From: a virus
Taxonomy: Duplodnaviria; Heunggongvirae; Uroviricota; Caudoviricetes
Strand: one strand, 5' to 3'
Length of the DNA stretch: 64,000 bases
IMG/VR virus record: IMGVR_UViG_3300010882_000009
Part shown: in pieces, positions 749 to 61,244 of the stretch
How positions within the stretch are numbered: position 1 is the first letter of the stretch
How the letters are laid out: each line of letters begins with the position of its first letter
Program-made: the position numbers and the translations under genes
The notes under the pieces: generated by a model
Told to the model about the DNA's origin: nothing
Seen by the model: the letters and a program-made list of their open reading frames with translations, nothing else
Databases searched by the model: none

Positions 749-1414
749 ATGGATGCTATATTAAGTATACAAAAAGCAGGGAAAATGCTTGGCGTTACTC
801 CTAAAACTCTTAAGCTATGGGATGAACAAAATAAACTTAAACCATATTTTAAAACGTCAGGAGGGCATCGCAGATATAGGCTGTCTGATATTGATGAATT
901 TATTGGATGCAACATTATTATTAAACCAAGGGTTTTTATTTATTGTCGTGTATCTACTAAAAAACAAGAAGATGCTGGGAATCTTTTGCGGCAAGAACAA
1001 AGGCTTGTGTCGTACTGTCAAGATAAAGATTATGAAATAGTCTCTGTGTTCAAAGAAGTAGCATCTGGAATTAATGATAATCGCAGAGAATTAATAAAAA
1101 TGTTTAAAAGGCTATCTGATGCAGATAAAATTATTGTTGAATATAATGACCGTATAGCTAGATTTGGGTTTAATTATCTAAAAGAATTTGCAAATTCATA
1201 TAACGTTGAAATTGAAGCCATTGAAAATAATATTAAATTAGAACCAAATGAAGAAATGGTAAATGATTTGGTAAGTATTGTAACTTGCTTTAGTGCAAAG
1301 ATTTACGGGGTAAGAGGCGGAAAGAAAATCAAGAAAACTCTTGATGAACTTGAAATAAAAAGATTAGAGGGGAGTGATATCAGTGAAGATAACAGTAAAA
1401 TCAATGCTGATTAA
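749..1414 (+). CDS. tnpA: IS607-family transposase TnpA: MerR-like HTH plus serine recombinase (resolvase) catalytic domain
   Basis: N-term HTH LGVTPKTLKLWDEQNKLKP..GGHRRY; catalytic YCRVSTKKQ serine motif; RBS gtgaggtga. Confidence 0.85.
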   Translation: MDAILSIQKAGKMLGVTPKTLKLWDEQNKLKPYFKTSGGHRRYRLSDIDEFIGCNIIIKPRVFIYCRVSTKKQEDAGNLLRQEQRLVSYCQDKDYEIVSVFKEVASGINDNRRELIKMFKRLSDADKIIVEYNDRIARFGFNYLKEFANSYNVEIEAIENNIKLEPNEEMVNDLVSIVTCFSAKIYGVRGGKKIKKTLDELEIKRLEGSDISEDNSKINAD

Positions 1415-2849
1415 TGTTGATAATTCTTGTGACAATATATTATCTAGTATGATGTTAGTCTTCTGCTCTGCTATTAGATTCTCCTTTAAACGCTTGCTAG
1501 AAGATGTTAAAATTTGTGATCTAGAAAAAATAGTTGCTCTTAAATACAATCTAAATATTCGTCAAGCTAAAGATGCTGTAGAAAATGCTAGGCAAACTAT
1601 CGCTTCTCAAAAAGAATTGGTCAAACTCAACTACAAAAATTATACTGCTAAAATTATTACTATAGAAAATGCTTTGAAAAATAATAAATTGTCTGAGAAA
1701 AAACGTAAAGCATTATTGTCTAAGTTCGATAAACGTAAAAGAAAACAATTATATTACAAAAATTTTATTGATACTAATACCATCCCCTCAGTTATATTTG
1801 GAACTAAAGAATTATTCCTTAAACGATGCAAAGGTTTAATCTCAAAACAAGAATGGCAAAATGCTCGTAATAACAGGATTTATAGTAGAGGAGATAAAAC
1901 TAAATCTGGGAACCCTAATCTTAGAGTTATTGTAGATAATGATAGAAATACTTTTCTTGAAATATCTACGTTAGAAAAAACATCAACGAATAGAGCAGTA
2001 AAGATAAGAGTGCCATTATATCTTCCTCAAAAAGTCTCAAAGAAAACTGGTAAAATTAATGGCAGAGACTATAAAAATATGATTATTGATTATGTTAAAA
2101 CCGGAGAGGCTTATCAAGTAGAGTTGATTAAGAAAAACAGCAAATACTATTGCCATATTACTTTTGACGAAGCAAAGATAAGAGATATTACACCTATATA
2201 TACAGGACACAATGCTTTGCTAGGTGTCGATACTAATCCAGATGGATTCGGATTAACTCTTATAAGTAGAGATGGTAATTATAGCAAACATATTTATCTC
2301 AAACAATCCGAATTAAAATATGCACGTAGTAATCGTAGAACAAATTTATGTGGAGAGATATCTAAACAAGTTATAAATTTTGCTAAACAACATAATTGCG
2401 GAATTGCTATTGAAGATTTAAAGTTTGCTAATGATAAAGATGTTGGCAACAAATTCGCTAGAATAAAACATCAATTTATTTATAGTAAACTATTGCATAT
2501 GCTCGAATTATGTTGCAAACGAAATAATGTAGAGATAGTAAAGGTTAAGCCGCAGTTTACGTCTAAGATAGGATTATATAAATACTGCCATCAATATGGA
2601 ATGGATGTGCATAATGGAGCAGCAATGGTTATAGCACGGAGAGCTTATGGACTAAAAGAGAAAGTGCCAAAGTTGTTAAAATACATGTTTGTCAAAGATG
2701 ATAATATAAGTAAATTTAATCAAAAGAACGAGTGGAGCAAGTGGTCAGCGATTAACAAAGAAATACAAAAACAAATAAAAAATATAAAAATGAAGGGAGG
2801 TACTGGTTTCTGGCAACATGATAGGAAGATGATATTAGGACTGGTGTAA
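1383..2849 (+). CDS. tnpB: TnpB-like RuvC-fold protein (IS605 OrfB family), zinc finger degenerate
   Basis: RuvC-I LLGVDTNPDG, RuvC-II GIAIEDLKF, RuvC-III MDVHNGAAMVIARRA; overlaps tnpA 3' end; start uncertain (GTG 1374/1383 or ATG 1404); no CxxC..CxxC. Confidence 0.8.
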   Translation: MKITVKSMLINVDNSCDNILSSMMLVFCSAIRFSFKRLLEDVKICDLEKIVALKYNLNIRQAKDAVENARQTIASQKELVKLNYKNYTAKIITIENALKNNKLSEKKRKALLSKFDKRKRKQLYYKNFIDTNTIPSVIFGTKELFLKRCKGLISKQEWQNARNNRIYSRGDKTKSGNPNLRVIVDNDRNTFLEISTLEKTSTNRAVKIRVPLYLPQKVSKKTGKINGRDYKNMIIDYVKTGEAYQVELIKKNSKYYCHITFDEAKIRDITPIYTGHNALLGVDTNPDGFGLTLISRDGNYSKHIYLKQSELKYARSNRRTNLCGEISKQVINFAKQHNCGIAIEDLKFANDKDVGNKFARIKHQFIYSKLLHMLELCCKRNNVEIVKVKPQFTSKIGLYKYCHQYGMDVHNGAAMVIARRAYGLKEKVPKLLKYMFVKDDNISKFNQKNEWSKWSAINKEIQKQIKNIKMKGGTGFWQHDRKMILGLV

Positions 2850-5778: not shown

Positions 5779-6360
5779 ATGAAAAAGTATAGTTTTACTG
5801 GTGATACTAAGATAGTAAATGGAATAACACTACAAAGAATTAAGGCGAATGTTGATTTTCATTATGTTAGTGTTGGAGACTTGGGTGGATGGATAGAAAA
5901 TGAATCGAATCTTTCAAATAATGTAAATAATAATGCTTGGGTGTCTAATGATGCCCAGGTATACGGTAATGCCCAGGTATCAGGTAATGCCCAGGTATAC
6001 GGTAATACCCAGGTATCAGGTAATGCCCAGGTATCAGGTAATGCCCAGGTATACGGTAATGCTAGGATATACGGTAATGCCCAGGTATACGGTAATGCTA
6101 GGATATATAGTGGAGAGTGGGAAGTATCACCATTATATATACAAGGAACAAAATGGGTGTTCTGTATGGTATCAAAAACTGAAATAAAAATTGGATGCCA
6201 AATTCATACAATAGATAAATGGAGAGAAAATTACAGAATAATAGCAAAGAGACACAACGCAGTTGACATTATTGAAGAATATGTAATGTATTTGAATGTT
6301 GCTATTGCAAGGTATGGACTTGGTGATGCTATTTTACTCGAAGATATTGCTGTAAATTAG
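5779..6360 (+). CDS. hexapeptide-repeat (beta-helix-like) protein, 9 x GNAQV[YS]
   Basis: period-6 aa repeat with aliphatic every 6th residue; RBS aaaaggattg. Confidence 0.6.
   Translation: MKKYSFTGDTKIVNGITLQRIKANVDFHYVSVGDLGGWIENESNLSNNVNNNAWVSNDAQVYGNAQVSGNAQVYGNTQVSGNAQVSGNAQVYGNARIYGNAQVYGNARIYSGEWEVSPLYIQGTKWVFCMVSKTEIKIGCQIHTIDKWRENYRIIAKRHNAVDIIEEYVMYLNVAIARYGLGDAILLEDIAVN
5947..6108. repeat. 9 tandem copies of 18-bp unit ggtaatgcccaggtatac (coding)
   Basis: near-identical units differing at 1-3 positions. Confidence 0.9.
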
Positions 6361-22836: not shown

Positions 22837-24093
22837 ATGAAAAATAATACATATAGAATTACCAATAATGATATAAAAGGAATGGAAGTACTCGAAATTA
22901 GCTATAAAATATTCAATAATGATTGGACTACTCAATATGGGAACTATTGCTATGTAGATGAAAATGGTAATGTAGAAGGCTCTATTCATAAAGTTGATGG
23001 CGATATTAATGCTTGTAACTGGGGCCTACATTCAAGTAAAAACCCATTAGATTGCTTAAAATTCTATCCAATGGTTCAGTGGAATAAATATGCAATTGTA
23101 AAATCTTATGGCAAAGCAAAAGAACATTCAGATGGAGATAAAATAGTTTCGCAAATATTGAAAATTGATAAAGTTTTATCATGGAGCGAATTCCTTAACG
23201 AAATAAAAAATTATAATAATGGTAATACCGATATGCATGGCTCTGGCATTAGTGATGGCTCTGGCATTAGTGATGGCTATGGCATTAGGAATGGCTATGG
23301 CATTAGGAATGGCTATGGTATTAGGAATGGCTCTGGCATTAGGAATGGCTATGGTATTAGTGATGGCTATGGCATTAGGAATGGCTATGGTATTAGTGAT
23401 GGCTATGGCATTAGGAATGGCTATGGTATTAGTTATGGCTATGGCATTAGTGATGGCTATGGCATTAGGAATGGCTCTGGCATTAGTGATGGCTCTGGCA
23501 TTATGAATAGCTCTGGCATTAGGAATGGCTATGGCATTAGTGATGGCTATGGCATTAGTGATGGCTATGGTATTAGTTATGGCTATGGCATTAGTGATGG
23601 CTATGGCATTAGTTATGGCTATGGCATTAGTGATGGCTATGGCATTAGGAATGGCTCTGGCATTAGTGATGGCTATGGCATTAGGAATGGCTCTGGCATT
23701 AGTGATGGCTATGGCATTAATTATGGCTATGGCATAAACAATTCAAAATACTGTTATAAATGCGAAGGTATATCAAGATGTATAATGTGTTATGATTTTA
23801 CGGGGAAGTTATCTGTGTTTAATAAGCCTATAACAGAAACACGGTTTAATGAAATAAATAATACAATAGAAGAATTATCGGATGGCTGGTATCCTAAGTT
23901 TAATAATGCTTTTGATTTATATAGTCAAAACAATAGCAAATGGGAATCAACACCAGTAACGATGATAAAAGAAAAATCAATAAAAGAAGCATATACAGAT
24001 ATGCCGAAAGAATTAATTGAGTATATCAAGTCTATTAATGAATATGATGAAAATATATTTAATATAATTATTGGATTAAAGGATGGGGAATAA
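22837..24093 (+). CDS. tandem hexapeptide-repeat protein, 28 x G[YS]GI[SR][DN]
   Basis: period-6 aa, aliphatic every 6th residue; N-terminus resembles that of 5779-6360; RBS taaggaga. Confidence 0.6.
   Translation: MKNNTYRITNNDIKGMEVLEISYKIFNNDWTTQYGNYCYVDENGNVEGSIHKVDGDINACNWGLHSSKNPLDCLKFYPMVQWNKYAIVKSYGKAKEHSDGDKIVSQILKIDKVLSWSEFLNEIKNYNNGNTDMHGSGISDGSGISDGYGIRNGYGIRNGYGIRNGSGIRNGYGISDGYGIRNGYGISDGYGIRNGYGISYGYGISDGYGIRNGSGISDGSGIMNSSGIRNGYGISDGYGISDGYGISYGYGISDGYGISYGYGISDGYGIRNGSGISDGYGIRNGSGISDGYGINYGYGINNSKYCYKCEGISRCIMCYDFTGKLSVFNKPITETRFNEINNTIEELSDGWYPKFNNAFDLYSQNNSKWESTPVTMIKEKSIKEAYTDMPKELIEYIKSINEYDENIFNIIIGLKDGE
23239..23742. repeat. 28 tandem 18-bp units ggctatggcattagtgat (coding)
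   Basis: units differ only at 3 codon positions (tat/tct, agt/agg, gat/aat). Confidence 0.9.
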
Positions 24094-31168: not shown

Positions 31169-31501
31169 ATGCAAGTCAATAAGAACTTATTATTATGCAT
31201 AACATCAATTTTAGGAATGGTTGTAACATTATTTTCATTTGTTTTATTTAGAAATATTATTAATAGCGTTGTTATTGCAATAAAGACTGATGTTAACTTC
31301 TCATATTTTCAAGGTAATGTTGGAATGTTGGTAGTAGAACTTAGTAATAATATTAATATTATCAAGGCTTCAAATTTAATATTACATTTTATAATATTAT
31401 TACTAATTACAACTTGTGCATTGAATAATTGGAATTTGTATTTAAAAAACAAAAATATTAAAAGAGTAACTGGAGGATTTGAAAATGATAAAAATAATTA
31501 A
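31169..31501 (+). CDS. small membrane protein (NfeD-like partner position)
   Basis: 2-3 hydrophobic helices; overlaps downstream SPFH gene by 17 nt. Confidence 0.5.
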   Translation: MQVNKNLLLCITSILGMVVTLFSFVLFRNIINSVVIAIKTDVNFSYFQGNVGMLVVELSNNINIIKASNLILHFIILLLITTCALNNWNLYLKNKNIKRVTGGFENDKNN

Positions 31502-32534
31502 TCTTAAAAAAGCAATGGTGTTAGTGTTTATGTCAGTTATCTTATTGTCTCAAACCGGATGTTTTGTAAGGCCATATAATAAGCCTTCTGTAGTACAAGT
31601 TGAAACAAATGAATCCGCATTTCTAGTTGATATGCGTTCTGATGCAGCAGTAACGACGGATTCTATGACACTTATTCAACGCAAAGATATTATAATAGAT
31701 GGTTATTGGATACAGACAGGAAGGCTCCCAATAAGTGGGCATTATCGTCCTACACAACGTGTATTAGTTGTTCCACGCCGCCCAGTTGAGGTTCAATGGA
31801 ATGGGAACAATGGGAATCCTGTAGTTCGTGCTGTTAGCAGTGAATCAGTTGGATTTCAAGTCCCATTAGTATTGAATGCAACAATTCAAACAGATGAAGA
31901 CGCATTAAAATATTTAAACTGGTTTCGCTCAAATAATAATATTGATGGCGGTGCAATGAACAATGTTAGGGAAGAAGCAGAGGCATTAGAAATTACACTA
32001 AACAGGGTAGTGTTTCCAGTTATTAATAATGTACTATCTAGTATGTTTTTAGAAAAGACTATAATTGAGGCTGAATCACACAGAGTAGAATTTGTAAAAC
32101 AAGCTTTTGAAGCTGCAAAAGAAGAGGCGTATAAATATGGAATAACACTTTTAATTCTTTCGTCTACAGATGGTCTTTTGTATGATGATTCAGAATTCCA
32201 GAATAGAATAAATCAATTGGCTGTCGCAAAGATGCGTGAAAATGTTCTAGAACAAGAAAATGCTAATGCTTTAGCTGAACAACAGGTTGCTATGACTAAC
32301 GCTAACACTGCTGCTGAAGTTGCAAAAATACAAGATTTAACATTAGACATCCAACGTCGCCAAATGGAAATTGAGGGGCAACGTAAGTTATATGAAGCAG
32401 AGGCCGATGCGATACGTTCAAGAGGTAAAAACCAATGGCCCACAACTCTTATTGTGCAAGATTTAGATGCACTTGGGAACCTTGGTATAATACCTGTAAT
32501 AAATAACAATCAACAACAAACAACACAACCATAA
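31485..32534 (+). CDS. SPFH/band-7 (stomatin-prohibitin-flotillin) family lipoprotein
   Basis: signal peptide plus lipobox LSQTGC; SPFH-like core and Ala/Glu-rich coiled-coil C-term; locally much higher GC. Confidence 0.6.
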   Translation: MIKIINLKKAMVLVFMSVILLSQTGCFVRPYNKPSVVQVETNESAFLVDMRSDAAVTTDSMTLIQRKDIIIDGYWIQTGRLPISGHYRPTQRVLVVPRRPVEVQWNGNNGNPVVRAVSSESVGFQVPLVLNATIQTDEDALKYLNWFRSNNNIDGGAMNNVREEAEALEITLNRVVFPVINNVLSSMFLEKTIIEAESHRVEFVKQAFEAAKEEAYKYGITLLILSSTDGLLYDDSEFQNRINQLAVAKMRENVLEQENANALAEQQVAMTNANTAAEVAKIQDLTLDIQRRQMEIEGQRKLYEAEADAIRSRGKNQWPTTLIVQDLDALGNLGIIPVINNNQQQTTQP

Positions 32535-37549: not shown

Positions 37550-38023
37550 TTGAAAAATAACGGATTAAGGATTGTTAATGACTTTGACTATATCATTCTT
37601 GATAGAATAATGGAAGATAATCAGAATATTATTGATAGTGGTATGTGTTGGAATGAAAATTATATTACACTTGATGATATTCGAAGTGGAATCGCTAATA
37701 GAATAGAAGAACAAACCGAACAATACAAACCACACTACTATAAACATGAAACTTTTAAATCTGATGAGTGGCACATTGGCAGAGTAATATATTTTGTAAA
37801 TAATCCAGACATGATAACGCCTATAGATATTACAGCAGATATTTATAGCAATAGATATAAGTGCATACAAAAAACAAATGTTAGTATTGATGATGGTCAT
37901 CATAGACTAATAGCACACTTGATTTTAGGTAATAAAATTATTAAGGCATACTACAGTGGAAGGTGTGACTTACTAGATTATCTAACCGGGCAGACTGACA
38001 AGAAGCCTATAGAGTGGGTATGA
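37550..38023 (+). CDS. ParB/Srx-fold (ParB-like nuclease domain) protein (TTG start)
   Basis: C-terminal DDGHHRLIAHLILGNKIIKAY resembles ParB N-domain core; RBS atgaggtga. Confidence 0.5.
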   Translation: MKNNGLRIVNDFDYIILDRIMEDNQNIIDSGMCWNENYITLDDIRSGIANRIEEQTEQYKPHYYKHETFKSDEWHIGRVIYFVNNPDMITPIDITADIYSNRYKCIQKTNVSIDDGHHRLIAHLILGNKIIKAYYSGRCDLLDYLTGQTDKKPIEWV

Positions 38024-38463: not shown

Positions 38464-38697
38464 ATGTTAAATATATTTGAACAAGCTGATAATAACCTGA
38501 GTAAAGGATGCGAAAGAGAAGTTATGGATAGAATATACGACAAATTATTCAACAACGATGAAATGCCAAAGTTCCCAATAGAAGAAATAGATGACCAATG
38601 TATAAACCATGACGAAAAAAGAATTGAGTTTGCAATAAGAGGGAATTTATACCATGTTCATGTTGCATTAGCAGATCAAAAATTGGTGATAAAATGA
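38464..38697 (+). CDS. hypothetical protein
   Basis: RBS gaaaggttga. Confidence 0.55.
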   Translation: MLNIFEQADNNLSKGCEREVMDRIYDKLFNNDEMPKFPIEEIDDQCINHDEKRIEFAIRGNLYHVHVALADQKLVIK

Positions 38698-39014
38698 TTA
38701 ATAATAATAAAACAGATAATAGCAACAAAATTATACTTGATTTATGTGGTGGAACAGGGAGTTGGGCTAAACCATATGCTGATGCAGGATATAATGTAAT
38801 AACAATAACATTGCCTGATTATGATGTAACAGATGTTGTGTTTTCAGATGATTATATGGTGTTTAATAAACAAACATATAATGTAAATGATTTGGGAATT
38901 AAATATGAAGATGTTTATGGAATATTAGCGGCCCCACATATTACTATTAATGCATGCTTAAAGATTATAGAAAAATGCAAACCTAAATTTTGGGCATTAG
39001 AGAATCCAGTTTGA
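38694..39014 (+). CDS. hypothetical protein
   Basis: ATGA stop/start overlap with upstream gene. Confidence 0.5.
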   Translation: MINNNKTDNSNKIILDLCGGTGSWAKPYADAGYNVITITLPDYDVTDVVFSDDYMVFNKQTYNVNDLGIKYEDVYGILAAPHITINACLKIIEKCKPKFWALENPV

Positions 39015-43363: not shown

Positions 43364-43507
43364 ATTTTATAACATATATAAGGAGTGATAATTATTTGGT
43401 ATATTGTAATATCTGTTGTAGCATTAGTAACGATATGTTTTTTAAATAAATTTAAAATAAATAAATATAAACATAATGATAATGATAAATATAGGAGCAA
43501 AATTAAT

Positions 43508-43978
43508 ATGCAAGAATATTATATGTCAGATTATACCAGAGCATTATGTAGAGCTATAATTGCACATGATAAACAATATGATGAATCAGGATTGCCATAT
43601 GTGATTCATTTAATAGCAGCATCTGAACTTCTTGATACTAATGAAGGAAAAATAGCAGCTATATTACATGACATCATTAACATGAATCATGATAACGATT
43701 TATTAAATATAAATTTAATAGAAAAAGACTTTGATGAAAATATTGCAAGTATTGTTGATTGTCTTACAAAACAAGAAAGAGAAACATATGAACAATATAT
43801 GCATCGTGTTTGCAAAAATGAAATTGCAATTAAAATAATAATTGCTAAATTAAAAATTAAAATAAATAAAACACTATATGATGAAGATATTATTGTTAAA
43901 TTAGAAGATAAATTTAATGAATGGAATAAATGGATTAATATTTTAGAAAAATGTTTAGAAAAATATAATAAAAAATGA
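43508..43978 (+). CDS. HD-domain protein with RelA/SpoT (Mesh1-like small alarmone hydrolase) fold; ED diad not conserved
   Basis: AHDKQYDESGLPYVIHLIAASELL..KIAAILHDIINM matches SpoT HD region; RBS ataggagc; track start 43385 would add a TM segment. Confidence 0.55.
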   Translation: MQEYYMSDYTRALCRAIIAHDKQYDESGLPYVIHLIAASELLDTNEGKIAAILHDIINMNHDNDLLNINLIEKDFDENIASIVDCLTKQERETYEQYMHRVCKNEIAIKIIIAKLKIKINKTLYDEDIIVKLEDKFNEWNKWINILEKCLEKYNKK

Positions 43979-43988
43979 GGGCGATTGC

Positions 43989-44675
43989 ATGAATTTGTAT
44001 GATTTAAAGTCTGGAATGAGAGTAAGAACAAGAAATAATAATATGTATTTAGTAATTGAAAACTATATTACCGAAAAATATGGTAAACTTAATTTTATAT
44101 TGGCAAATTTTAATGGAGGAGGATTTAACGTCCCATGTTCTTATTCTGAAAATATGTGTAATCATTCAAATAATTTATATGATATAATGGAAGTATATAT
44201 TCCATGTACAGATAATGATATATTAAAAACATGTGAAAGTAGAATTAAATCAATTTGGCAACGCAATGAAGTAACTTTTGATAATTGTGATAATAGAATC
44301 TTGTATATAGACGATATGTTTTGTGATAGTAGAATATTGAGACAAGATATTGTCAATATGATGAAAAATAAAAATATACATACAAGCGTTATAGATTTAA
44401 GAGATGTAGATAATTTGCCAAGTGAAATTTGTGATTTTGATTTCATTTTGATAAATATTAATGATGTAACTAATTATATTTTATTATTAATAAGTAGGTT
44501 GCAAAAAATATTTTCATATTCATATTTTATAATTCTAACAAAAAATGATTCAGTTTCAGCAATGAAAGAATTAATTAATAATGGAATTAATGGTTATATT
44601 AATACAAGCAGCGATGAATATGATATTGTTTTAAATGATATTAGTTCACTCATAGATAGAAAGTTAGCGGAATAA
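43989..44675 (+). CDS. two-domain protein: N-domain paralogous to 51769-52110, C-terminal CheY-like receiver (REC) fold
   Basis: DFDFILININD..IILTKNDSVSAMKELINNGINGYI resembles REC acidic pocket and alpha4-beta5; RBS tgagggcg. Confidence 0.5.
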   Translation: MNLYDLKSGMRVRTRNNNMYLVIENYITEKYGKLNFILANFNGGGFNVPCSYSENMCNHSNNLYDIMEVYIPCTDNDILKTCESRIKSIWQRNEVTFDNCDNRILYIDDMFCDSRILRQDIVNMMKNKNIHTSVIDLRDVDNLPSEICDFDFILININDVTNYILLLISRLQKIFSYSYFIILTKNDSVSAMKELINNGINGYINTSSDEYDIVLNDISSLIDRKLAE

Positions 44676-47970: not shown

Positions 47971-47978
47971 AAAATTTG

Positions 47979-48003
47979 AATAGAAGACGCATTCTATTCA
48001 AAT
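47979..48003 (+). promoter_or_regulatory. motif copy
   Basis: AATAGAA-gacgca-TTCTATT-CAAAT. Confidence 0.6.
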
Positions 48004-48041
48004 TAAAAAATAAAAATATTATAATAAAAGGGGTTATTTAT

Positions 48042-48998
48042 ATGTATTTGTTTAAAAGTGGAATTATTTTAAAGGATAGAGTTTTTATACCAGACTACGA
48101 CAATTATGCAGATATGTTTAAAGAATTAAATATAGATGGCAATCCCGAAAATACTAAGCCTATTTTTGTACGTGTAGAACTTATTCCACAAGACAATAAT
48201 GTCTTTTCTGATATTGCTACATGGAGATTTAATGTTAACCAAGATATAGTGCCTGACTGGTTTGTTAAAGATTATGAAAAAGAACGCATGATCACTGCAG
48301 TAAAAGAATGGGCTAAATCCCGTATTTATATTGGTGTTGACGGATTAGAATTGTCAACAGGAGCTAATTATTATTTAAAAGATTGTAACGATATTATATT
48401 GACAGGCAATGTAAATATTGCAATGTTGAAAAGCTCAACTGTGCGTCTGATGTGTGATAGCACAATTGTAGAAAAGATGTGTGATAGCTCAACTGTAGGA
48501 GTGATGTGGGATAGCTCAAATATAAGAGAGATGTGTGATAGCTCAACTGTAAGAGAGATGTGGGATAGCTCAAATATAAGAGAGATGAATGATAGCTCAA
48601 TTGTAGAAAAGATGTGGGATAGCTCAACTGTAGGAGTGATGAGGCAAAGATCAATTGTAGAAAAGATGTTGCAAGGATCAACTGTTAGAGATATGAGAGA
48701 TAGCTCAACTGTGCGTCTGATGTGTGATAACTCAACCGTAGAAACGATGTGGGAAAGCTCAATTGTAGGAGTGATGAGTGGAAGTTCAAATATAAGAGAG
48801 ATGTGGGGTAGCTCGACTGTAAGAGAGATGAGAGATAGCTCAATTGTGTCAATACAAAATAATTTGTTCTCAAAAGGTATAAAACAAGATAGTATTATAC
48901 TGTGTGATAATGCTGTAATAAAAGACAGTCGTACAAAAACAATCTATCATAGCGGAGATTGGAAACTAGTTTTAATTGAGAATTCTGAAATTAGGTGA
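48042..48998 (+). CDS. tandem 9-aa-repeat protein (16 x DSSTVREMW-like)
   Basis: RBS aaaaggggtt; period-9 aa repeats. Confidence 0.6.
   Translation: MYLFKSGIILKDRVFIPDYDNYADMFKELNIDGNPENTKPIFVRVELIPQDNNVFSDIATWRFNVNQDIVPDWFVKDYEKERMITAVKEWAKSRIYIGVDGLELSTGANYYLKDCNDIILTGNVNIAMLKSSTVRLMCDSTIVEKMCDSSTVGVMWDSSNIREMCDSSTVREMWDSSNIREMNDSSIVEKMWDSSTVGVMRQRSIVEKMLQGSTVRDMRDSSTVRLMCDNSTVETMWESSIVGVMSGSSNIREMWGSSTVREMRDSSIVSIQNNLFSKGIKQDSIILCDNAVIKDSRTKTIYHSGDWKLVLIENSEIR
48425..48860. repeat. about 16 tandem 27-bp units (coding)
   Basis: unit tgtgatagctcaactgtaagagagatg with point variants. Confidence 0.85.
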
Positions 48999-51768: not shown

Positions 51769-52110
51769 ATGAAACTTAAAGATCTAAAAAATGGTATGAG
51801 AATAGTAGTTAGAAATAAAAGTATATTCGTTGTGTTTGAAAATATAAATACACGAATGAATGGGTTTGTAGAAAAATTTTTTGTAAAGTTTAGTGAACAC
51901 GAAGACGAAGAACTTAAAATTATACTATCGCGTTTATATGATATAAATATAGGATGCGGATTTATGGGTTCAAATAAGTATAATGAAGATATGCTTTGCC
52001 CAACAGATAAAGCATTTGATATTATGAAAGTCTTATACCCAAGAGGTGATATTTTCTTTTTATCACGAAAACTAGAAAATATGGATTTAATATGGGAGAG
52101 GAATAAATAG
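51769..52110 (+). CDS. hypothetical protein, paralogue of N-domain of 43989-44675
   Basis: RBS aaagggggga; shared M.L.DLK.GMR...RN......EN. Confidence 0.55.
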   Translation: MKLKDLKNGMRIVVRNKSIFVVFENINTRMNGFVEKFFVKFSEHEDEELKIILSRLYDINIGCGFMGSNKYNEDMLCPTDKAFDIMKVLYPRGDIFFLSRKLENMDLIWERNK

Positions 52111-52844: not shown

Positions 52845-53192
52845 ATGGAGAGTAGTATTATACATATACCTGCAGAAGTAGTATTAGCAAATTTATTAGC
52901 TAATAATAAAAATGATAATGGTATTTCTATTGATGATATTATGCAATATTATTCGCTTGTTAGTAAAATAGAAGGACTATTATATGATATTGTATTTAAT
53001 ATCAATACAAATGATATGAATTATGCTGTAATACAATATCCAAAATTATTCTATAAATTCCAGGATAGATATTATTGCAAACAAAATGCAAAAATAAATT
53101 TGCATAATTTTAATGGAAGGTATAGCCAAATTATAAACTATATATTAACAGATTGCGCAAACAACCTTAATATGAATAAGGAGATAAAATGA
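52845..53192 (+). CDS. hypothetical protein
   Basis: RBS gaaaggata. Confidence 0.55.
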   Translation: MESSIIHIPAEVVLANLLANNKNDNGISIDDIMQYYSLVSKIEGLLYDIVFNINTNDMNYAVIQYPKLFYKFQDRYYCKQNAKINLHNFNGRYSQIINYILTDCANNLNMNKEIK

Positions 53193-53737
53193 TAAATTTT
53201 AATGATATCCCACAATTCACAGAAAGTGGACAATGGGAATGTAGTTATAGTTTTAAATCTTTATTGGAATTCATTGATGAAGAAGTATCAGAGCGTGGAT
53301 TGCAGTTGAATCCAGATTTTCAACGTGGGAGGGTTTGGAGTAATGAACAAAGTTCTAAATATATAGAGTTTGTTTTACAAGGTGGTAGGACTGCAAATAT
53401 AATTTATCTCAACAATCCTTCATGGCATACTGTTGTTGATATTGATGATAATAGATATAATGATTTTGTATGCGTAGATGGATTGCAACGGCTTACATCA
53501 ATACGACAATTTATGAATAATGAGATAAAAGTATTTGATAATTATTATAAAGATTTTACTGGAACAAATAGAATGAGAATGTTAAATTTACGAGTAAATG
53601 TAAATGATTTAAAAACACGAGAGCAAGTTTTGCGTTGGTATTTAGAAATGAATAGTGGTGGGGTTGTTCATACTAAAGAAGAAATTGATAAGGTTAAGAG
53701 ACTGCTTGATGAAGAATTAAAAGTTAATTCAAAATAA
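53189..53737 (+). CDS. DUF262 (ParB/Srx-fold, GmrSD N-domain-like) protein
   Basis: NPDFQRGRVW and VDGLQRLTS motifs; ATGA overlap upstream. Confidence 0.6.
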   Translation: MINFNDIPQFTESGQWECSYSFKSLLEFIDEEVSERGLQLNPDFQRGRVWSNEQSSKYIEFVLQGGRTANIIYLNNPSWHTVVDIDDNRYNDFVCVDGLQRLTSIRQFMNNEIKVFDNYYKDFTGTNRMRMLNLRVNVNDLKTREQVLRWYLEMNSGGVVHTKEEIDKVKRLLDEELKVNSK

Positions 53738-55411: not shown

Positions 55412-55502
55412 AACAATACATTTATGAAAATTGAGGAGTAGATTATATGGGATTTGGAACCTCAGCGTCAGGGAAAGCATGTAATACAGGGGGTAATCAA
55501 TT

Positions 55503-55820
55503 TTGAAAATTAATGATTGCAATTCTTATCGAGTAGACCACAACTTTATCAATCGTATTAAAGAGTTACATGAGATTTATGGTGAATCATACCAAGAAAT
55601 TATGGCAATCGAAGAAATGGCAGAGCTTACTAAGGCTCTAATAAAGAAATTGCGCAAGAAGGAAAATATTAATGATATAATTGAAGAAGTAGCCGATTCG
55701 CTTATTTGTATTATATCATTAGCTCATTTATATGGATACGAAAAGGTAATGAGTATTATAAATCAAAAGTGGCAGCGGCAAAGTGAACGAGATAGTTTAG
55801 AGAAGTATGCTAATAAATAG
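55503..55820 (+). CDS. MazG-like nucleotide pyrophosphohydrolase (all-alpha NTP-PPase) (TTG start)
   Basis: EEMAELTKAL...EEVADSLICIISLA paired EExxE/D helices. Confidence 0.55.
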   Translation: MKINDCNSYRVDHNFINRIKELHEIYGESYQEIMAIEEMAELTKALIKKLRKKENINDIIEEVADSLICIISLAHLYGYEKVMSIINQKWQRQSERDSLEKYANK

Positions 55821-57336: not shown

Positions 57337-58533
57337 ATGATTGATAAATATGCACAAGTACAAAATATATTAAAAGTGCTTGGTATAAATGCAATTGTAA
57401 TTGGAGATATACAAGGTCGTGTAACAACAACATACGAACTTCATATGGTAGACGGCGAAAAATCGGCAAAACTAAAAAGAGCTAAAGAAGATATACGTAT
57501 AAGGTTGAAAGCGGAAACTGTACAAATTGTGCAGATGGCTAATAATTCAATTGGAATAGAAGTTTCTAATAAATCTAATGAGATATTGAGAATTGGAGAT
57601 ATTATAAGATCTTCAGAATACAAAAGCTCAACAGCTCCGCTAAAGTTTGCAATTGGAGAAAGTCAATGCGGGGAAAAAATATATGGAAGCCTACCGGAGT
57701 TAAGAAACATATTAATCGCTGGGGCATCAGGTTCTGGCAAGTCTGTATTTATAAATGTATTAATATCAAGTTTAATAATGGAACCAGTAAAAGAATTACG
57801 GCTTGTATTATTAGACCCAAAGAAAGTGGAATTAACACCTTATGAAAATATTCCACATCTATTGGCCCCAGTTATAACAGATGAAAAAAAAGCAGAAATA
57901 ATGCTAGAATGGCTTTGCGAAGAAACAAATAGAAGATATGAATTATTAAATCAGATAGCAAAGCTAAATAATATTCCTATAAGAAATATAGATAGATACA
58001 ATGAGATATTAGAAAAGAATAATATGAATGACAAAAAGTTATATAGGATAGTAGTTATAATTGATGAATTATCTCAGCTTATAATGTCATCATCAAAAAA
58101 AGTAGAAGATGCAATAATTAAAATATCTCAGCTAAGTAGAGCTGCTGGGATTCATTTAATAGTAGCAACACAAAGACCATCTGCTGATATTATAACTTCC
58201 CGCATAAAAGATAACTTGCAGACTAAAATAGTATTTGCAGTAGATAAACCACAAAGTTCTATGGTTGCACTAGGTAGGACAGGTGCTGAATCATTACTTG
58301 GAAAGGGTGATATGCTATTTAAAAGAGAAAATGATATGAATCCTATGAGGATACAAGGGGCATATATCAGCGATGATGAAGTAGAAAGAGTAATTAATTA
58401 TTTCAGAAGTAAAAATATTTATCCTGTATTTGATAAAAGTATTATTGATGCACTGGAAGGAAAGCATGGGAATAATAGTAATGAGTTTCTAAGTAATATT
58501 TTTAGTGGATTAAGTAATAATGGTATATATTAG
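57337..58533 (+). CDS. FtsK/SpoIIIE-family DNA translocase ATPase (motor domain)
   Basis: Walker A GASGSGKS, Walker B VVIIDELSQL, ATQRPS, FtsK-like N-terminal beta-region; RBS aaaggcggg. Confidence 0.8.
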   Translation: MIDKYAQVQNILKVLGINAIVIGDIQGRVTTTYELHMVDGEKSAKLKRAKEDIRIRLKAETVQIVQMANNSIGIEVSNKSNEILRIGDIIRSSEYKSSTAPLKFAIGESQCGEKIYGSLPELRNILIAGASGSGKSVFINVLISSLIMEPVKELRLVLLDPKKVELTPYENIPHLLAPVITDEKKAEIMLEWLCEETNRRYELLNQIAKLNNIPIRNIDRYNEILEKNNMNDKKLYRIVVIIDELSQLIMSSSKKVEDAIIKISQLSRAAGIHLIVATQRPSADIITSRIKDNLQTKIVFAVDKPQSSMVALGRTGAESLLGKGDMLFKRENDMNPMRIQGAYISDDEVERVINYFRSKNIYPVFDKSIIDALEGKHGNNSNEFLSNIFSGLSNNGIY

Positions 58534-59053: not shown

Positions 59054-60109
59054 GTGGGTAAACAAGTTAGGACATTAATGTTTAACAGGAATTTGAAAGA
59101 AGAGTACATTGATTTTGAAAAAAAGGAAAGCAATAAAATTGCATTGGAAAACTATTTTAAACGACTATACGATGCAGAGGTTTCAACTGGCGATAATGGT
59201 ACAGATATAATATTTATGACTTACGATGAATTAAAAATAGCATTTTTATCACTAGGGATAAGACGAGATTTATCAATATCTCATTTTTTAGCATCAATGA
59301 GAGGATATGCATCGTGGGCTTTGTTAGTAAAGGGGATTACAAAAGACAAAAAGGCTTTTGACATAATGACTGTAGATGCATTAAAAGAAAAAAGCACAAT
59401 CACTAGTAAGATGCTAGGGGATTATGAACAGCTTAAAACTATTATTTTTAATGGACTTGATACAGTTAATTATCCTAATGCATCTATGCGAAATAGTTTA
59501 GTATTACATTTGGTTTTTGACGGGTTAACATTCAATGATATTGTAGATTTAAAAAAATCCGATCTTGATTTAAATACAAATTCAATAACGCTGGGGGGTG
59601 GATATATTGTAAAGTTATCTGACGAGACAGTTGATTTGTGGCTTAGATTTCAAGATGTTGATGGAATAGAAAAGAAAAATGCACAGGCGGAAAGATCAAC
59701 AAAATCAACAACAGAAGAATATATAATGATTCCTCTAATAGATAACGACTACTTAATACGACCACAATTAAGGCAAAATGCAAGAACACAGCAAACACAG
59801 ATTCCGTTATCTTCATTAAATCGTATTATACGTGTTATATATAAGACTTCAAAATCAAGCGAACAGCTATCTCCTTCTACTGTTCGCATATCAGGTGTAT
59901 TTCATAGATTATATCAGTGTGAGCTAAAAGGAGAAATAAATGGTGTAAAAATTACATCTGATATTGATAATTATGAATATGAAATTGCAAAATATCTTGC
60001 ATATCATCTTCGTGTTGAGTATAATGACAAAGGAGAGTTGATGTTAAAATTATTGAGATGGAGGAAAGATTATAGCGATTGGAAGTATGCATTTGGTTAC
60101 ACATCTTAA
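59054..60109 (+). CDS. divergent tyrosine-recombinase-like protein (GTG start), call tentative
   Basis: candidate box I R in SMRNSLVLHLVFDGLTFNDIVDLKKSDLDL, K in GYIVKLSDE, box II-like STVRISGVFHRLY, C-terminal Tyr candidates; RBS aaaggatggtg. Confidence 0.4.
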   Translation: MGKQVRTLMFNRNLKEEYIDFEKKESNKIALENYFKRLYDAEVSTGDNGTDIIFMTYDELKIAFLSLGIRRDLSISHFLASMRGYASWALLVKGITKDKKAFDIMTVDALKEKSTITSKMLGDYEQLKTIIFNGLDTVNYPNASMRNSLVLHLVFDGLTFNDIVDLKKSDLDLNTNSITLGGGYIVKLSDETVDLWLRFQDVDGIEKKNAQAERSTKSTTEEYIMIPLIDNDYLIRPQLRQNARTQQTQIPLSSLNRIIRVIYKTSKSSEQLSPSTVRISGVFHRLYQCELKGEINGVKITSDIDNYEYEIAKYLAYHLRVEYNDKGELMLKLLRWRKDYSDWKYAFGYTS

Positions 60110-60143: not shown

Positions 60144-61244
60144 ATGCCAGCAGCAAGAACAAAAGCAAAAGCAAAAGAAAAATCAAATATGATAGTGCCC
60201 GAGCATGTTGTAAAGCCAGTATATGTAGTAATAGAACCTGAGTCAAGCAAGGTTGATATGAGTGTATCAAGTGTTGCAAACAAATTTAAAAACAGAACTA
60301 TTATTACAGATATTTTAGAACAACGTGGTGATGTTTGGCATCCTATTGTTAAAGGAATGTTTATTCGCGCCTTAATAAGAGGTGTCCAAATACCACCATT
60401 GTACTTCAACAAAGCTGAAAAGACTAGCGAAGCGTTAGACGGACAGCAGAGGATTAGAACAATCTCAGGATTTATTCATGGAGAATTTTCTATCCATAAA
60501 GATGTTCCACCTATACGTGTAGAAAAAGATGGAGTTGCTGAAGATTTTGTAATAGCACGACTATATTTTAAAGACTTACCTACTGATATACAGGATAAGT
60601 TAAAATCAACTGTATTATTATCTTTTACATTTTTTAATATGACACATGAAGAGAAGGTTAATTTTTTCATTGAAATAAATAGCAACAAACCTATATCCCC
60701 TGCTGACTTTTCCCGTATAAGAATATGCAGTAGACATATATTCATTAAACTTGCAAAACTTCCGGGGATAGCCAGTGTATTAAAGGATAGTAAGAAAAAG
60801 AAGTTGGAAGACGAAGATATTCCGGCAGATGCAGCAATAATGGCATACGCTAGTAACCATTCATTGATGAACGATAAAAACGGAAGACATATTCTTTGGA
60901 CGCAAGAAATAACTCCTGAGCAGGAAGAAGAAATGACAAAAGCACTTGACTATATGAAGACATTCTTTGTTATTATGGCAGACATGAAAAAAATGTCTAA
61001 TAAAATAAAGAATAGAAAAACGCACATGGTTTCATTAATGTACATGGCTATAATTGCTATTCAGAGATGTATAAGCGCAGAAGACTTCGCAGAGAGGGTT
61101 AAAGGATTTTTTAATACAAATGATGACCGGGCAAGTCACGATGAAGGATACAACAATGCATGTTCAGCGGCAAGCGCAAAATTATTAAGCGTATCTATAC
61201 GCAGAGATATATTGCGAAATGTAATTTATAGAGATATTGGATAA
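60144..61244 (+). CDS. DUF262 (ParB/Srx-fold) protein with DGQQR motif
   Basis: EQRGDVWHP...LDGQQRIRTISGF; RBS gaagggagatg. Confidence 0.6.
   Translation: MPAARTKAKAKEKSNMIVPEHVVKPVYVVIEPESSKVDMSVSSVANKFKNRTIITDILEQRGDVWHPIVKGMFIRALIRGVQIPPLYFNKAEKTSEALDGQQRIRTISGFIHGEFSIHKDVPPIRVEKDGVAEDFVIARLYFKDLPTDIQDKLKSTVLLSFTFFNMTHEEKVNFFIEINSNKPISPADFSRIRICSRHIFIKLAKLPGIASVLKDSKKKKLEDEDIPADAAIMAYASNHSLMNDKNGRHILWTQEITPEQEEEMTKALDYMKTFFVIMADMKKMSNKIKNRKTHMVSLMYMAIIAIQRCISAEDFAERVKGFFNTNDDRASHDEGYNNACSAASAKLLSVSIRRDILRNVIYRDIG

Follow-up and report, generated by a model that had tools for sequence, protein, structure and literature searches.

We analyzed a 64,000-nucleotide stretch of the IMG/VR virus record IMGVR_UViG_3300010882_000009 (Caudoviricetes), referred to here as the window (positions 1-64000). 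All coordinates refer to the window unless L083 or L085, parts of the same contig outside it, are named. Two genes were studied, one for an HD-domain protein (43508-43978) and one for a MazG-like protein (55503-55820). An earlier note, made from the sequence alone, had described the first as SpoT/Mesh1-like and had proposed that both products manipulate alarmones or nucleotide pools. The coordinates given there were exact, and both open reading frames (ORFs) were real and intact. Judged from its sequence, the HD protein is a stand-alone, degenerate member of the Aph1 family.

The HD ORF comprises 156 codons, and independent gene callers predicted the identical 156-residue product on other contigs and assemblies. 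A ribosome-binding site precedes the ATG codon (Table 1), and the local G+C content at the gene is 25-26%. The frame is also open upstream to a GTG codon at 43385 (43385-43507, + strand). A start there would lengthen the protein by 41 residues, some of them in a hydrophobic stretch of transmembrane-like character (IIIWYIVISVVALVTICFL). Initiation at this GTG codon is unlikely, because it overlaps its own AAGGAG sequence and the gene calls in databases use the ATG at 43508. Promoter-like sites were not above the shuffled expectation, and no terminators were found.

The HD protein matched Pfam HD_4 at 27.5 bits, just over the gathering cut-off of 27.2, and PHROG 990 'metal-dependent phosphohydrolase' at 2.4e-18. 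Its first ~100 residues matched TIGR00691 (spoT_relA) at 3.3e-12. HMMER, run exhaustively over 1.84 billion representatives, gave 3900 homologs with E ≤ 1e-3; the top homologs were 31-43% identical, and the majority were stand-alone proteins of ~140-160 residues. Among PDB sequences, the best match was Aph1 (7SMG, E = 6.6e-10), followed by the hydrolase domains of Rel and SpoT (1e-6 to 1e-5). When a profile of 83 homologs was used, the match to Aph1 reached 3.2e-52, compared with ~1e-20 for Rel and ~1e-15 for Mesh1. Aph1 (adenosine 3'-pyrophosphohydrolase 1) is a (p)ppApp hydrolase from a Bacteroides caccae prophage, and its structure is available as PDB 7SMG (Ahmad et al. 2023; PMC10083569). 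The rate given for ppApp in that study is about 478 per min.

An AlphaFold2 (AF2) model of the HD protein was built on the alignment of its homologs. The predicted local distance difference test score (pLDDT) was 93.7 and the predicted template-modeling (TM) score was 0.88, with a sole dip in the loop after the HD motif (block mean pLDDT 72). Foldseek ranked Aph1 first, with TM-scores of 0.84/0.91 and a root-mean-square deviation (rmsd) of 1.7 Å. Mesh1, RelH, PaSAH, SpoT, and Rel gave TM-scores of 0.57-0.72 (Mesh1 0.70) and rmsd values of 4-8 Å. The top 41 matches were all Aph1, Mesh1, RelH, small alarmone hydrolase (SAH), Rel, or SpoT structures, and best structural matches to unrelated HD phosphodiesterases, a possibility raised in the earlier note, were not seen. 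The HD protein belongs to the RelA/SpoT hydrolase superfamily and, within it, to the clade of Aph1; this homology is far beyond chance. The earlier assignment was correct for the RelA/SpoT-type HD domain, but SpoT and Mesh1 are not the closest relatives, as Aph1 was closer by both profile and structure.

We counted the residues at each position after aligning the HD protein with 119 stand-alone homologs and the Aph1 sequence. In RelA/SpoT-homolog (RSH) hydrolases, the Glu-Asp pair of motif HD4 is responsible for nucleophilic attack, HD2, HD3, and HD5 supply the Mn2+ ligands, and the Asn of HD6 contacts the base (PMC9293644). The sequence HDxxED was present outright in ~140 of 149 homologs, and four others have lost the motif entirely or lack HD itself. 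In the HD protein, this region reads HDIINMNHDND. The absence of the Glu-Asp diad had been noticed before and was confirmed, but the diad had been mapped onto Ile-Ile. These residues, I56 and I57, are the variable xx positions of HDxxED (V, I, or L in the family), and the Glu column holds N58. A three-residue insertion, M59-N60-H61, follows N58, and D62 then stands in the Asp column. Such an insertion occurs in only one other relative of the 119, designated P0034.

Many conserved residues were retained, namely H20, Q23, D25, G28, P30, Y31, H34, H54, D55, and T87 in the first part of the protein and E92, Y94, Y97, R100, N104, A107, and K135 in the second. Three of the four RSH metal ligands are among them (H34 of HD2 and H54-D55 of HD3, all at invariant columns). 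The fourth, the HD5 Asp found in 117/119 members (Aph1 D110), is K114. The HD4 Glu (118/119; Aph1 E57) is N58, an invariant Lys (119/119; Aph1 K107) is I111, and the HD6 Asn that contacts the base and ribose (113/118; Aph1 N114) is K118. In addition, the Tyr in contact with pyrophosphate (116/118; Aph1 Y134) is F136, and a Lys involved in base recognition (96/119; Aph1 K25) is E26. We considered other alignment registers for the HD5/HD6 helix and rejected them, as residues 106-124 contain no Asp or Glu and no shift yields one.

The residues that characterize the Aph type were also compared. Three of six were kept (D24, R96, and K133 of Aph1, corresponding to D25, R100, and K135). Of the others, D116 is N120, an Asn also seen in 18/119 family members, R119 lacks an equivalent (L123 or a deletion), and Y134 is F136 as mentioned above. 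In Aph1, N114 contacts the ribose, Y134 contacts the pyrophosphate, and D24 and R119 determine adenine specificity (PMC10083569). Overall, HD4, HD5, and HD6, three of the six catalytic motifs, were lost, and roughly half of the substrate contacts were lost with them. Deviations at four or more of 15 near-invariant active-site columns were seen in only 4 of 119 members, including the HD protein.

In RelHCg, the mutants E62N, D63N, and N126D/L are listed as inactive (PMC9293644), and E62N is the same substitution as N58 of the HD protein. In view of the three missing catalytic motifs and the reduced set of substrate contacts, hydrolysis of (p)ppApp or (p)ppGpp by the HD protein is unlikely. The suggestion that its activity or substrate may differ was consistent with the confirmed loss of the diad and with the further losses, which point to an altered or lost activity. 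A different substrate appears less likely than no hydrolysis, because the damage exceeds the Glu-Asp diad and extends over HD4, HD5, and HD6.

We searched for close relatives of the HD protein. In a word-indexed search of 5.8 billion clusters, the sole match was to itself, and scans of IMG/VR, GTDB genomes, and JGI metagenomes gave no close relative. In tblastn against GenBank phages, only matches of 34-36% identity were obtained. A conserved degenerate subclade was considered and rejected; P0034 has the insertion and has lost the Glu and Asp, yet its own relatives keep HDxxED and KxxDLxDN. P0034 is located in an unrelated phage replication module. Degenerate family members were rare and scattered singly (for example, P0034, P0101, and P0026).

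The HD protein matched the consensus at 60% of the active-site columns, compared with 93 ± 8% for the family. At other conserved columns, the match was 64%, compared with 78 ± 7.5%. Equally divergent members retain 93% of the active site, and the values are suggestive of a disproportionate loss in the HD protein's active site. We also simulated neutral drift in 3000 runs. The starting point was a 'repaired' ancestor, the base composition was that of the region (40% A, 34% T), and indels were ignored. In 99.1% of these runs, an in-frame stop codon came before 6 of 15 invariant sites had changed. Under this model, the intact ORF would be hard to explain as a freely drifting relic, because nearly all simulated lineages gain a stop codon first.

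The MazG-like protein showed a different picture. PHROG 2245 'nucleoside triphosphate pyrophosphohydrolase' was matched at 1e-14, and Pfam MazG (PF03819) was matched at 17.7 bits, under the gathering threshold of 22. At least 264 relatives were found in IMG/VR. The EEMAE and EEVAD motifs pointed out in the earlier note are present, at columns that are invariant or nearly so in 50 viral homologs. The protein retained all columns conserved at ≥ 90% or invariant in these homologs (Q31, E37, E38, M39-K44, K48, R51, E61, E62, D65, K89, R92, and R96). It shares the EExxE...EExxD motifs, the length of ~100 residues, and the all-alpha type with small MazG-like nucleoside triphosphate (NTP) pyrophosphohydrolases, but its family profile matched the solved structures of this group (5IE9, 2Q73, B. 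subtilis YpjD 2GTA, and SSO3215 1VMG) weakly, with E = 0.002-0.1. The protein is predicted to be a small NTP pyrophosphohydrolase, separate and intact, whose type is common among phages with Bacillota-type hosts; it most likely sanitizes or biases the (d)NTP pool. A 19-codon mini-ORF (55448-55506, + strand; MGFGTSASGKACNTGGNQF) with a strong GAGGAG ribosome-binding site ends at this gene. Its TGA stop overlaps the TTG start (TTTTGA), suggesting translational coupling or a leader peptide.

Table 1 Coordinates of the features in the window.
Feature	Position	Strand	Remark
ORF of the HD gene	43508..43978	+	156-residue Aph1-like HD-domain protein (probable pseudo-hydrolase); stop codon included
AGGAG ribosome-binding site	43493..43497	+	10 nucleotides upstream of the ATG at 43508; read from the sequence
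His34 codon	43607..43609	+	Motif HD2, first metal ligand, retained (119/119 His)
His54-Asp55 codons, CAT GAC	43667..43672	+	Motif HD3, retained
Degenerate HD4 region	43679..43693	+	Asn58, insertion Met59-Asn60-His61, Asp62; only lower-confidence loop of the model
Rewritten HD5/HD6 helix	43838..43861	+	I111-I-A-K114-L-K-I-K118
Phe136 codon	43913..43915	+	Tyr in the family (Aph1 Y134)
ORF of the MazG-like gene	55503..55820	+	105-residue MazG-like all-alpha NTP pyrophosphohydrolase; TTG start, intact
EEMAE metal-binding motif	55611..55625	+	Residues 37-41; invariant in 50/50 viral homologs
EEVAD metal-binding motif	55683..55697	+	Residues 61-65; E62 and D65 in 50/50, E61 in 49/50
IS607-like resolvase and TnpB-like gene	749-2849	+	Pfam scan
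Macro domain protein, stand-alone, 157 residues	24093-24566	+	Pfam Macro 23.5 bits, cut-off 22
Band_7	31479-32534		Pfam scan
Two GmrSD_N/DUF262 proteins, FtsK/SpoIIIE translocase, and MrpR-type tyrosine recombinase (cluster)	53189-53737, 57337-58533, 59054-60109, 60144-61244	+	
GNAT			Pfam scan
YdcK solenoid and DUF7666			Pfam scan; see tandem-repeat proteins 5779-6360, 22837-24093, 47976-48998
Paralogous ORF pairs	9916-10158/51117-51344; 12060-12317/62669-62956; 29759-30220/43104-43343		
Paralogous ORF pairs	33440-34114/41178-41858; 43989-44675/51769-52110		

The window is AT-rich, with a G+C content of 25-30%, and its GC skew is strongly positive throughout, so that the cumulative skew climbs monotonically by 0.22-0.34 per 4 kb. 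The block from 40 to 56 kb, which contains both the HD and MazG-like genes, has a lower G+C content (25-27%). Coding is almost exclusively on the + strand, and 136 non-overlapping ORFs of at least 50 residues make up 87% of the window. Pfam scans covered the concatenated + strand ORFs of at least 50 residues except a few near either end. The matches were very few and are listed in Table 1.

The ORF that begins 10 nucleotides after the HD gene (43989-44675, + strand, 228 residues) was considered as a partner of the HD protein and rejected; it is an ORFan, and its single-sequence AF2 model was unusable (pLDDT 32). Pfam returned nothing for this ORF, and PADLOC returned nothing for it, the HD protein, or the MazG-like protein. 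The N-terminal ~95 residues of this neighboring ORF have a paralog in ORF 51769-52110 (29% identity, 1.4e-9). Its C-terminal half resembles a CheY-type receiver that has degenerated and has Asn as the phospho-acceptor residue, for which the sole support is a match to the CtrA receiver in PDB (E = 0.07). Within the window, five ORF pairs are paralogous (29-45% identity, E = 1e-8 to 1e-44). The genes flanking the HD gene on both sides have paralogs elsewhere in the window, and the HD gene has none.

Several other genes were noted. The FtsK/SpoIIIE-type DNA translocase was matched by Pfam at 2.6e-47, and the DUF262 proteins are NsnA-like by PADLOC. Together with the recombinase they form maintenance- or transfer-type machinery, and the element looks integrative or plasmid-like as much as phage. 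The best matches of the FtsK-like protein were only ~40% identical and were distributed across gut Bacillota and Bacillus/Listeria phages. The Macro protein matched DarG in PADLOC at 5.9e-22, over the macrodomain half only. Being free and carried by a mobile element, this DarG-like macrodomain is a candidate antidote against DNA ADP-ribosylation defense of the DarT type. In the IS607-like unit, a protein with a MerR helix-turn-helix (HTH) and a serine resolvase domain (749-1414) overlaps a 491-residue TnpB-like protein, which has a faint match to the Pfam Cas12f1-like TNB and a precomputed match to SSO2105_N. Three proteins contain internal tandem peptide repeats (5779-6360, 22837-24093, and 47976-48998, + strand): a YdcK-type beta-solenoid (GNAQVYGNAQVSGN...), a DUF7666 protein with ~30 GYGI(R/S)(N/D) repeats, and a 340-residue ORFan with repeats of the (M/V)xDSSxV(R/E)(E/K)M type. 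For this ORFan, a ~600-bp copy with 85% DNA identity is present upstream of the window (L085 4340-4964). By eye, ORF 37550-38023 (+ strand) has a ParB/sulfiredoxin-like DDGHHR motif with no Pfam match at E 1e-3. ORF 38694-39014 (+ strand) has an S-adenosylmethionine-binding DLCGGTGSW motif; it appears to be a truncated DNA methyltransferase of 106 residues, and its Pfam match did not reach E 1e-3. No tRNA genes or Rfam families were found in the window.

Outside the window, the same contig carries a Lar restriction alleviation gene upstream (L085 1751-1972). The downstream stretch (L083 12174-20630) carries a nucleoside 2-deoxyribosyltransferase-like gene, HTH_17, a phage-type integrase, and a 454-residue CCA-adding enzyme (PolyA_pol + HD). 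toxSAS toxins pyrophosphorylate the CCA end of tRNA. A tRNA 3'-end repair enzyme on the same element as a presumably dead Aph-like gene is curious given these targets. Megablast against phages gave no match for the element. Contigs carrying the HD gene reach 225 kb, and one is in the 0.2-1 Mb size class; the element is therefore probably an integrated element or prophage of very large size, whose host would be a gut Bacillota bacterium rich in AT. A region of accessory or counter-defense genes is a plausible setting for the HD gene, which we regard as context and not as evidence of function.

We compared the HD protein with known systems. It is similar in size to Aph1 (about 145-156 residues), has the same stand-alone eight-helix HD fold, shares the H..HD residues, and, like Aph1, is encoded on a mobile element. 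It differs from Aph1 in the residues and the insertion described above and in that its gene does not adjoin a MuF-Apk toxin or a Tis1-like immunity gene. Most Aph homologs likewise lack a pairing with a (p)ppApp synthetase toxin, unlike Aph1 itself (PMC10083569). The SAHs and long RSH proteins, such as Mesh1 (3NQW/5VXA), RelH (7QOD), PaSAH (6YVC), RelSeq (1VJ7), and SpoT (7QPR), share the superfamily and the HD1-HD6 framework, and Pfam HD_4 and TIGR00691 cover the N-terminal 100 residues of the HD protein. They are more distant, however, with sequence matches of 1e-6 or weaker and lower structural similarity; the HD protein has the Asp of the Aph type in HD1 instead of Arg, in addition to the loss of HD4-HD6. 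The HD domain of E. coli RelA is a pseudo-hydrolase that has lost its catalytic residues and is kept for a non-catalytic regulatory or structural role (PMC8012599; PMC4974054). It is a precedent for the retention of a catalytically dead RSH-type HD domain, but it is one domain of a 744-residue ribosome-bound synthetase, whereas the HD protein consists of the degenerate domain alone. We know of no described stand-alone pseudo-SAH from a non-exhaustive literature search.

The explanation we favor is a pseudo-hydrolase that was retained to bind or to serve as a decoy and not to catalyze; the overall statement that the HD protein is a non-hydrolytic derivative of Aph1 has a probability of roughly 0.55. 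The gene would encode a stand-alone HD-fold protein that descended from the small (p)ppApp pyrophosphohydrolases of the Aph1 family and lost its chemistry. In its history, the general-base Glu would have become Asn58, the insertion would have displaced the partner Asp, and the HD5 Asp and HD6 Asn would have been replaced by Lys114 and Lys118. Such a protein would cleave neither (p)ppApp nor (p)ppGpp and might use its remodeled pocket to bind either a protein partner or some other phosphorylated ligand. Several points weigh against this explanation. The high pLDDT of the AF2 model is mostly alignment-driven. No relative above ~40% identity was found in 15 billion proteins, and all contigs carrying the HD gene are 100% identical in DNA, so that dN/dS (the ratio of nonsynonymous to synonymous substitution rates), polymorphism, and conservation of the deviant residues are not measurable. 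The difference between active-site and structural columns (6/15 vs 13/36) involves few sites and alone is not statistically significant. The drift simulation presumes that all six changes were neutral and leaves out other selection on the frame, for example through translational coupling to the gene 10 nucleotides downstream. Three metal ligands remain, and His61, Asp62, and Asp64 in the loop could in principle rebuild a metal site. Most nucleotide-contact residues are also changed, and an alarmone sponge becomes less plausible for this reason.

An alternative view is that the HD protein is still an active phosphohydrolase whose site has been remodeled, perhaps for a new substrate. In this case, H34, H54, and D55 would form a metal site with Asp62/Asp64 or His61, and K114, K116, and K118 would bind a more charged or different phospho-substrate. 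The invariant ligands and the HD motif are indeed retained, the insertion sets H61-D62-N63-D64 beside this motif, and the ORF is seemingly under selection according to the drift simulation. The HD superfamily is also chemically versatile; Mesh1 also acts on NADPH, and PDB contains complexes of Mesh1 with NADPH and with 3'-phosphoadenosine 5'-phosphosulfate (5vxa and 9chy). We nevertheless consider activity doubtful. The HD4 Glu-to-Asn change alone inactivates RelHCg (PMC9293644), the HD5 helix offers no acidic residue in any register, and the invariant Lys (position 111) and Asn (position 118) are gone too. The loop that would have to rebuild the site is the least confident part of the model, and no subfamily shares the arrangement, P0034 with its similar insertion being an isolated oddity among intact relatives. 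Another reading is a relic in decay, formerly an accessory gene of the Aph1 type, which has lost its function, drifts under AT mutation pressure, and has no present role. The replacement residues N, I, K, K, F, and E all have AT-rich codons in a region of low G+C content, but so do E, D, N, Y, and K of the consensus, and composition does not force the changes. The sporadic, single occurrence of degenerate members resembles repeated loss more than a selected subfamily, no orthologs appeared in any collection searched, and the substrate contacts are damaged besides the catalytic residues. Against decay, the gene has a good ribosome-binding site and a full-length ORF that the simulated lineages rarely kept, even with indels uncounted, and its structural columns are conserved as in divergent active members. 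A relic is thus unlikely, and retention for a non-catalytic role is more likely than a dead gene, because the ORF is intact in a 25% G+C background.

A joint action of the HD and MazG-like proteins, which would lower an alarmone or nucleotide messenger and blunt alarmone-based defense, was the proposal of the earlier note. Published work (PMC10083569; PMC7229694; papers on toxSAS) describes SAH/Aph-type hydrolases that neutralize (p)ppApp-producing and tRNA-pyrophosphorylating toxins, and the element has other candidate counter-defense genes, the DarG-like macrodomain gene and the upstream Lar gene. However, the HD protein has lost catalytic motifs, and the two genes lie 11.5 kb and ~27 ORFs apart. 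No Aph-like gene was present within ±5 kb of 80 viral MazG-like loci (652 kb), the MazG-like protein belongs to a common, stand-alone phage family, and no RelA_SpoT synthetase, toxSAS, or Apk domain was detected by Pfam among the + strand ORFs covered in the window. The statement that phage MazG proteins lower (p)ppGpp also found no support in the one phage MazG tested, that of a cyanophage, the classic candidate for ppGpp hydrolysis; it is reported not to hydrolyze magic-spot nucleotides (PMC6850273). There is no detectable functional link between the MazG-like gene and the HD gene, and we consider the joint scheme highly improbable. Tad/Acb2-type sponges neutralize cyclic-nucleotide signals. 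By analogy, a dead Aph1-fold protein might act as a decoy or sponge for the product or target of an alarmone toxin ((p)ppApp or 3'-pyrophosphorylated tRNA) or for a toxin or defense protein, and toxSAS or Apk would then be neutralized without hydrolysis. This specific form of the binding role is speculative and improbable.

SAH/Aph1-type hydrolases are the enzymes known to act as antidotes against toxins that produce (p)ppApp or pyrophosphorylate tRNA, and some of these toxins take part in anti-phage defense. The present value of the finding is modest, as the HD protein is a single orphan sequence. The MazG-like gene is ordinary. Active hydrolysis of (p)ppGpp or (p)ppApp should not be annotated for the HD ORF, or for sporadic similar ORFs such as P0034, P0101, and P0026, from a match to Pfam HD_4 alone. 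If the fold was kept, the chemistry lost, and the gene retained in a mobile element, the HD protein would be a candidate pseudoenzyme that acts as a binder or decoy instead of a catalyst. The idea of a pseudo-hydrolase, which so far comes from the N-terminal domain of RelA, would then extend to free-standing proteins. If the sponge or decoy reading were true, the HD protein would be the first functional pseudo-SAH that is a stand-alone protein.

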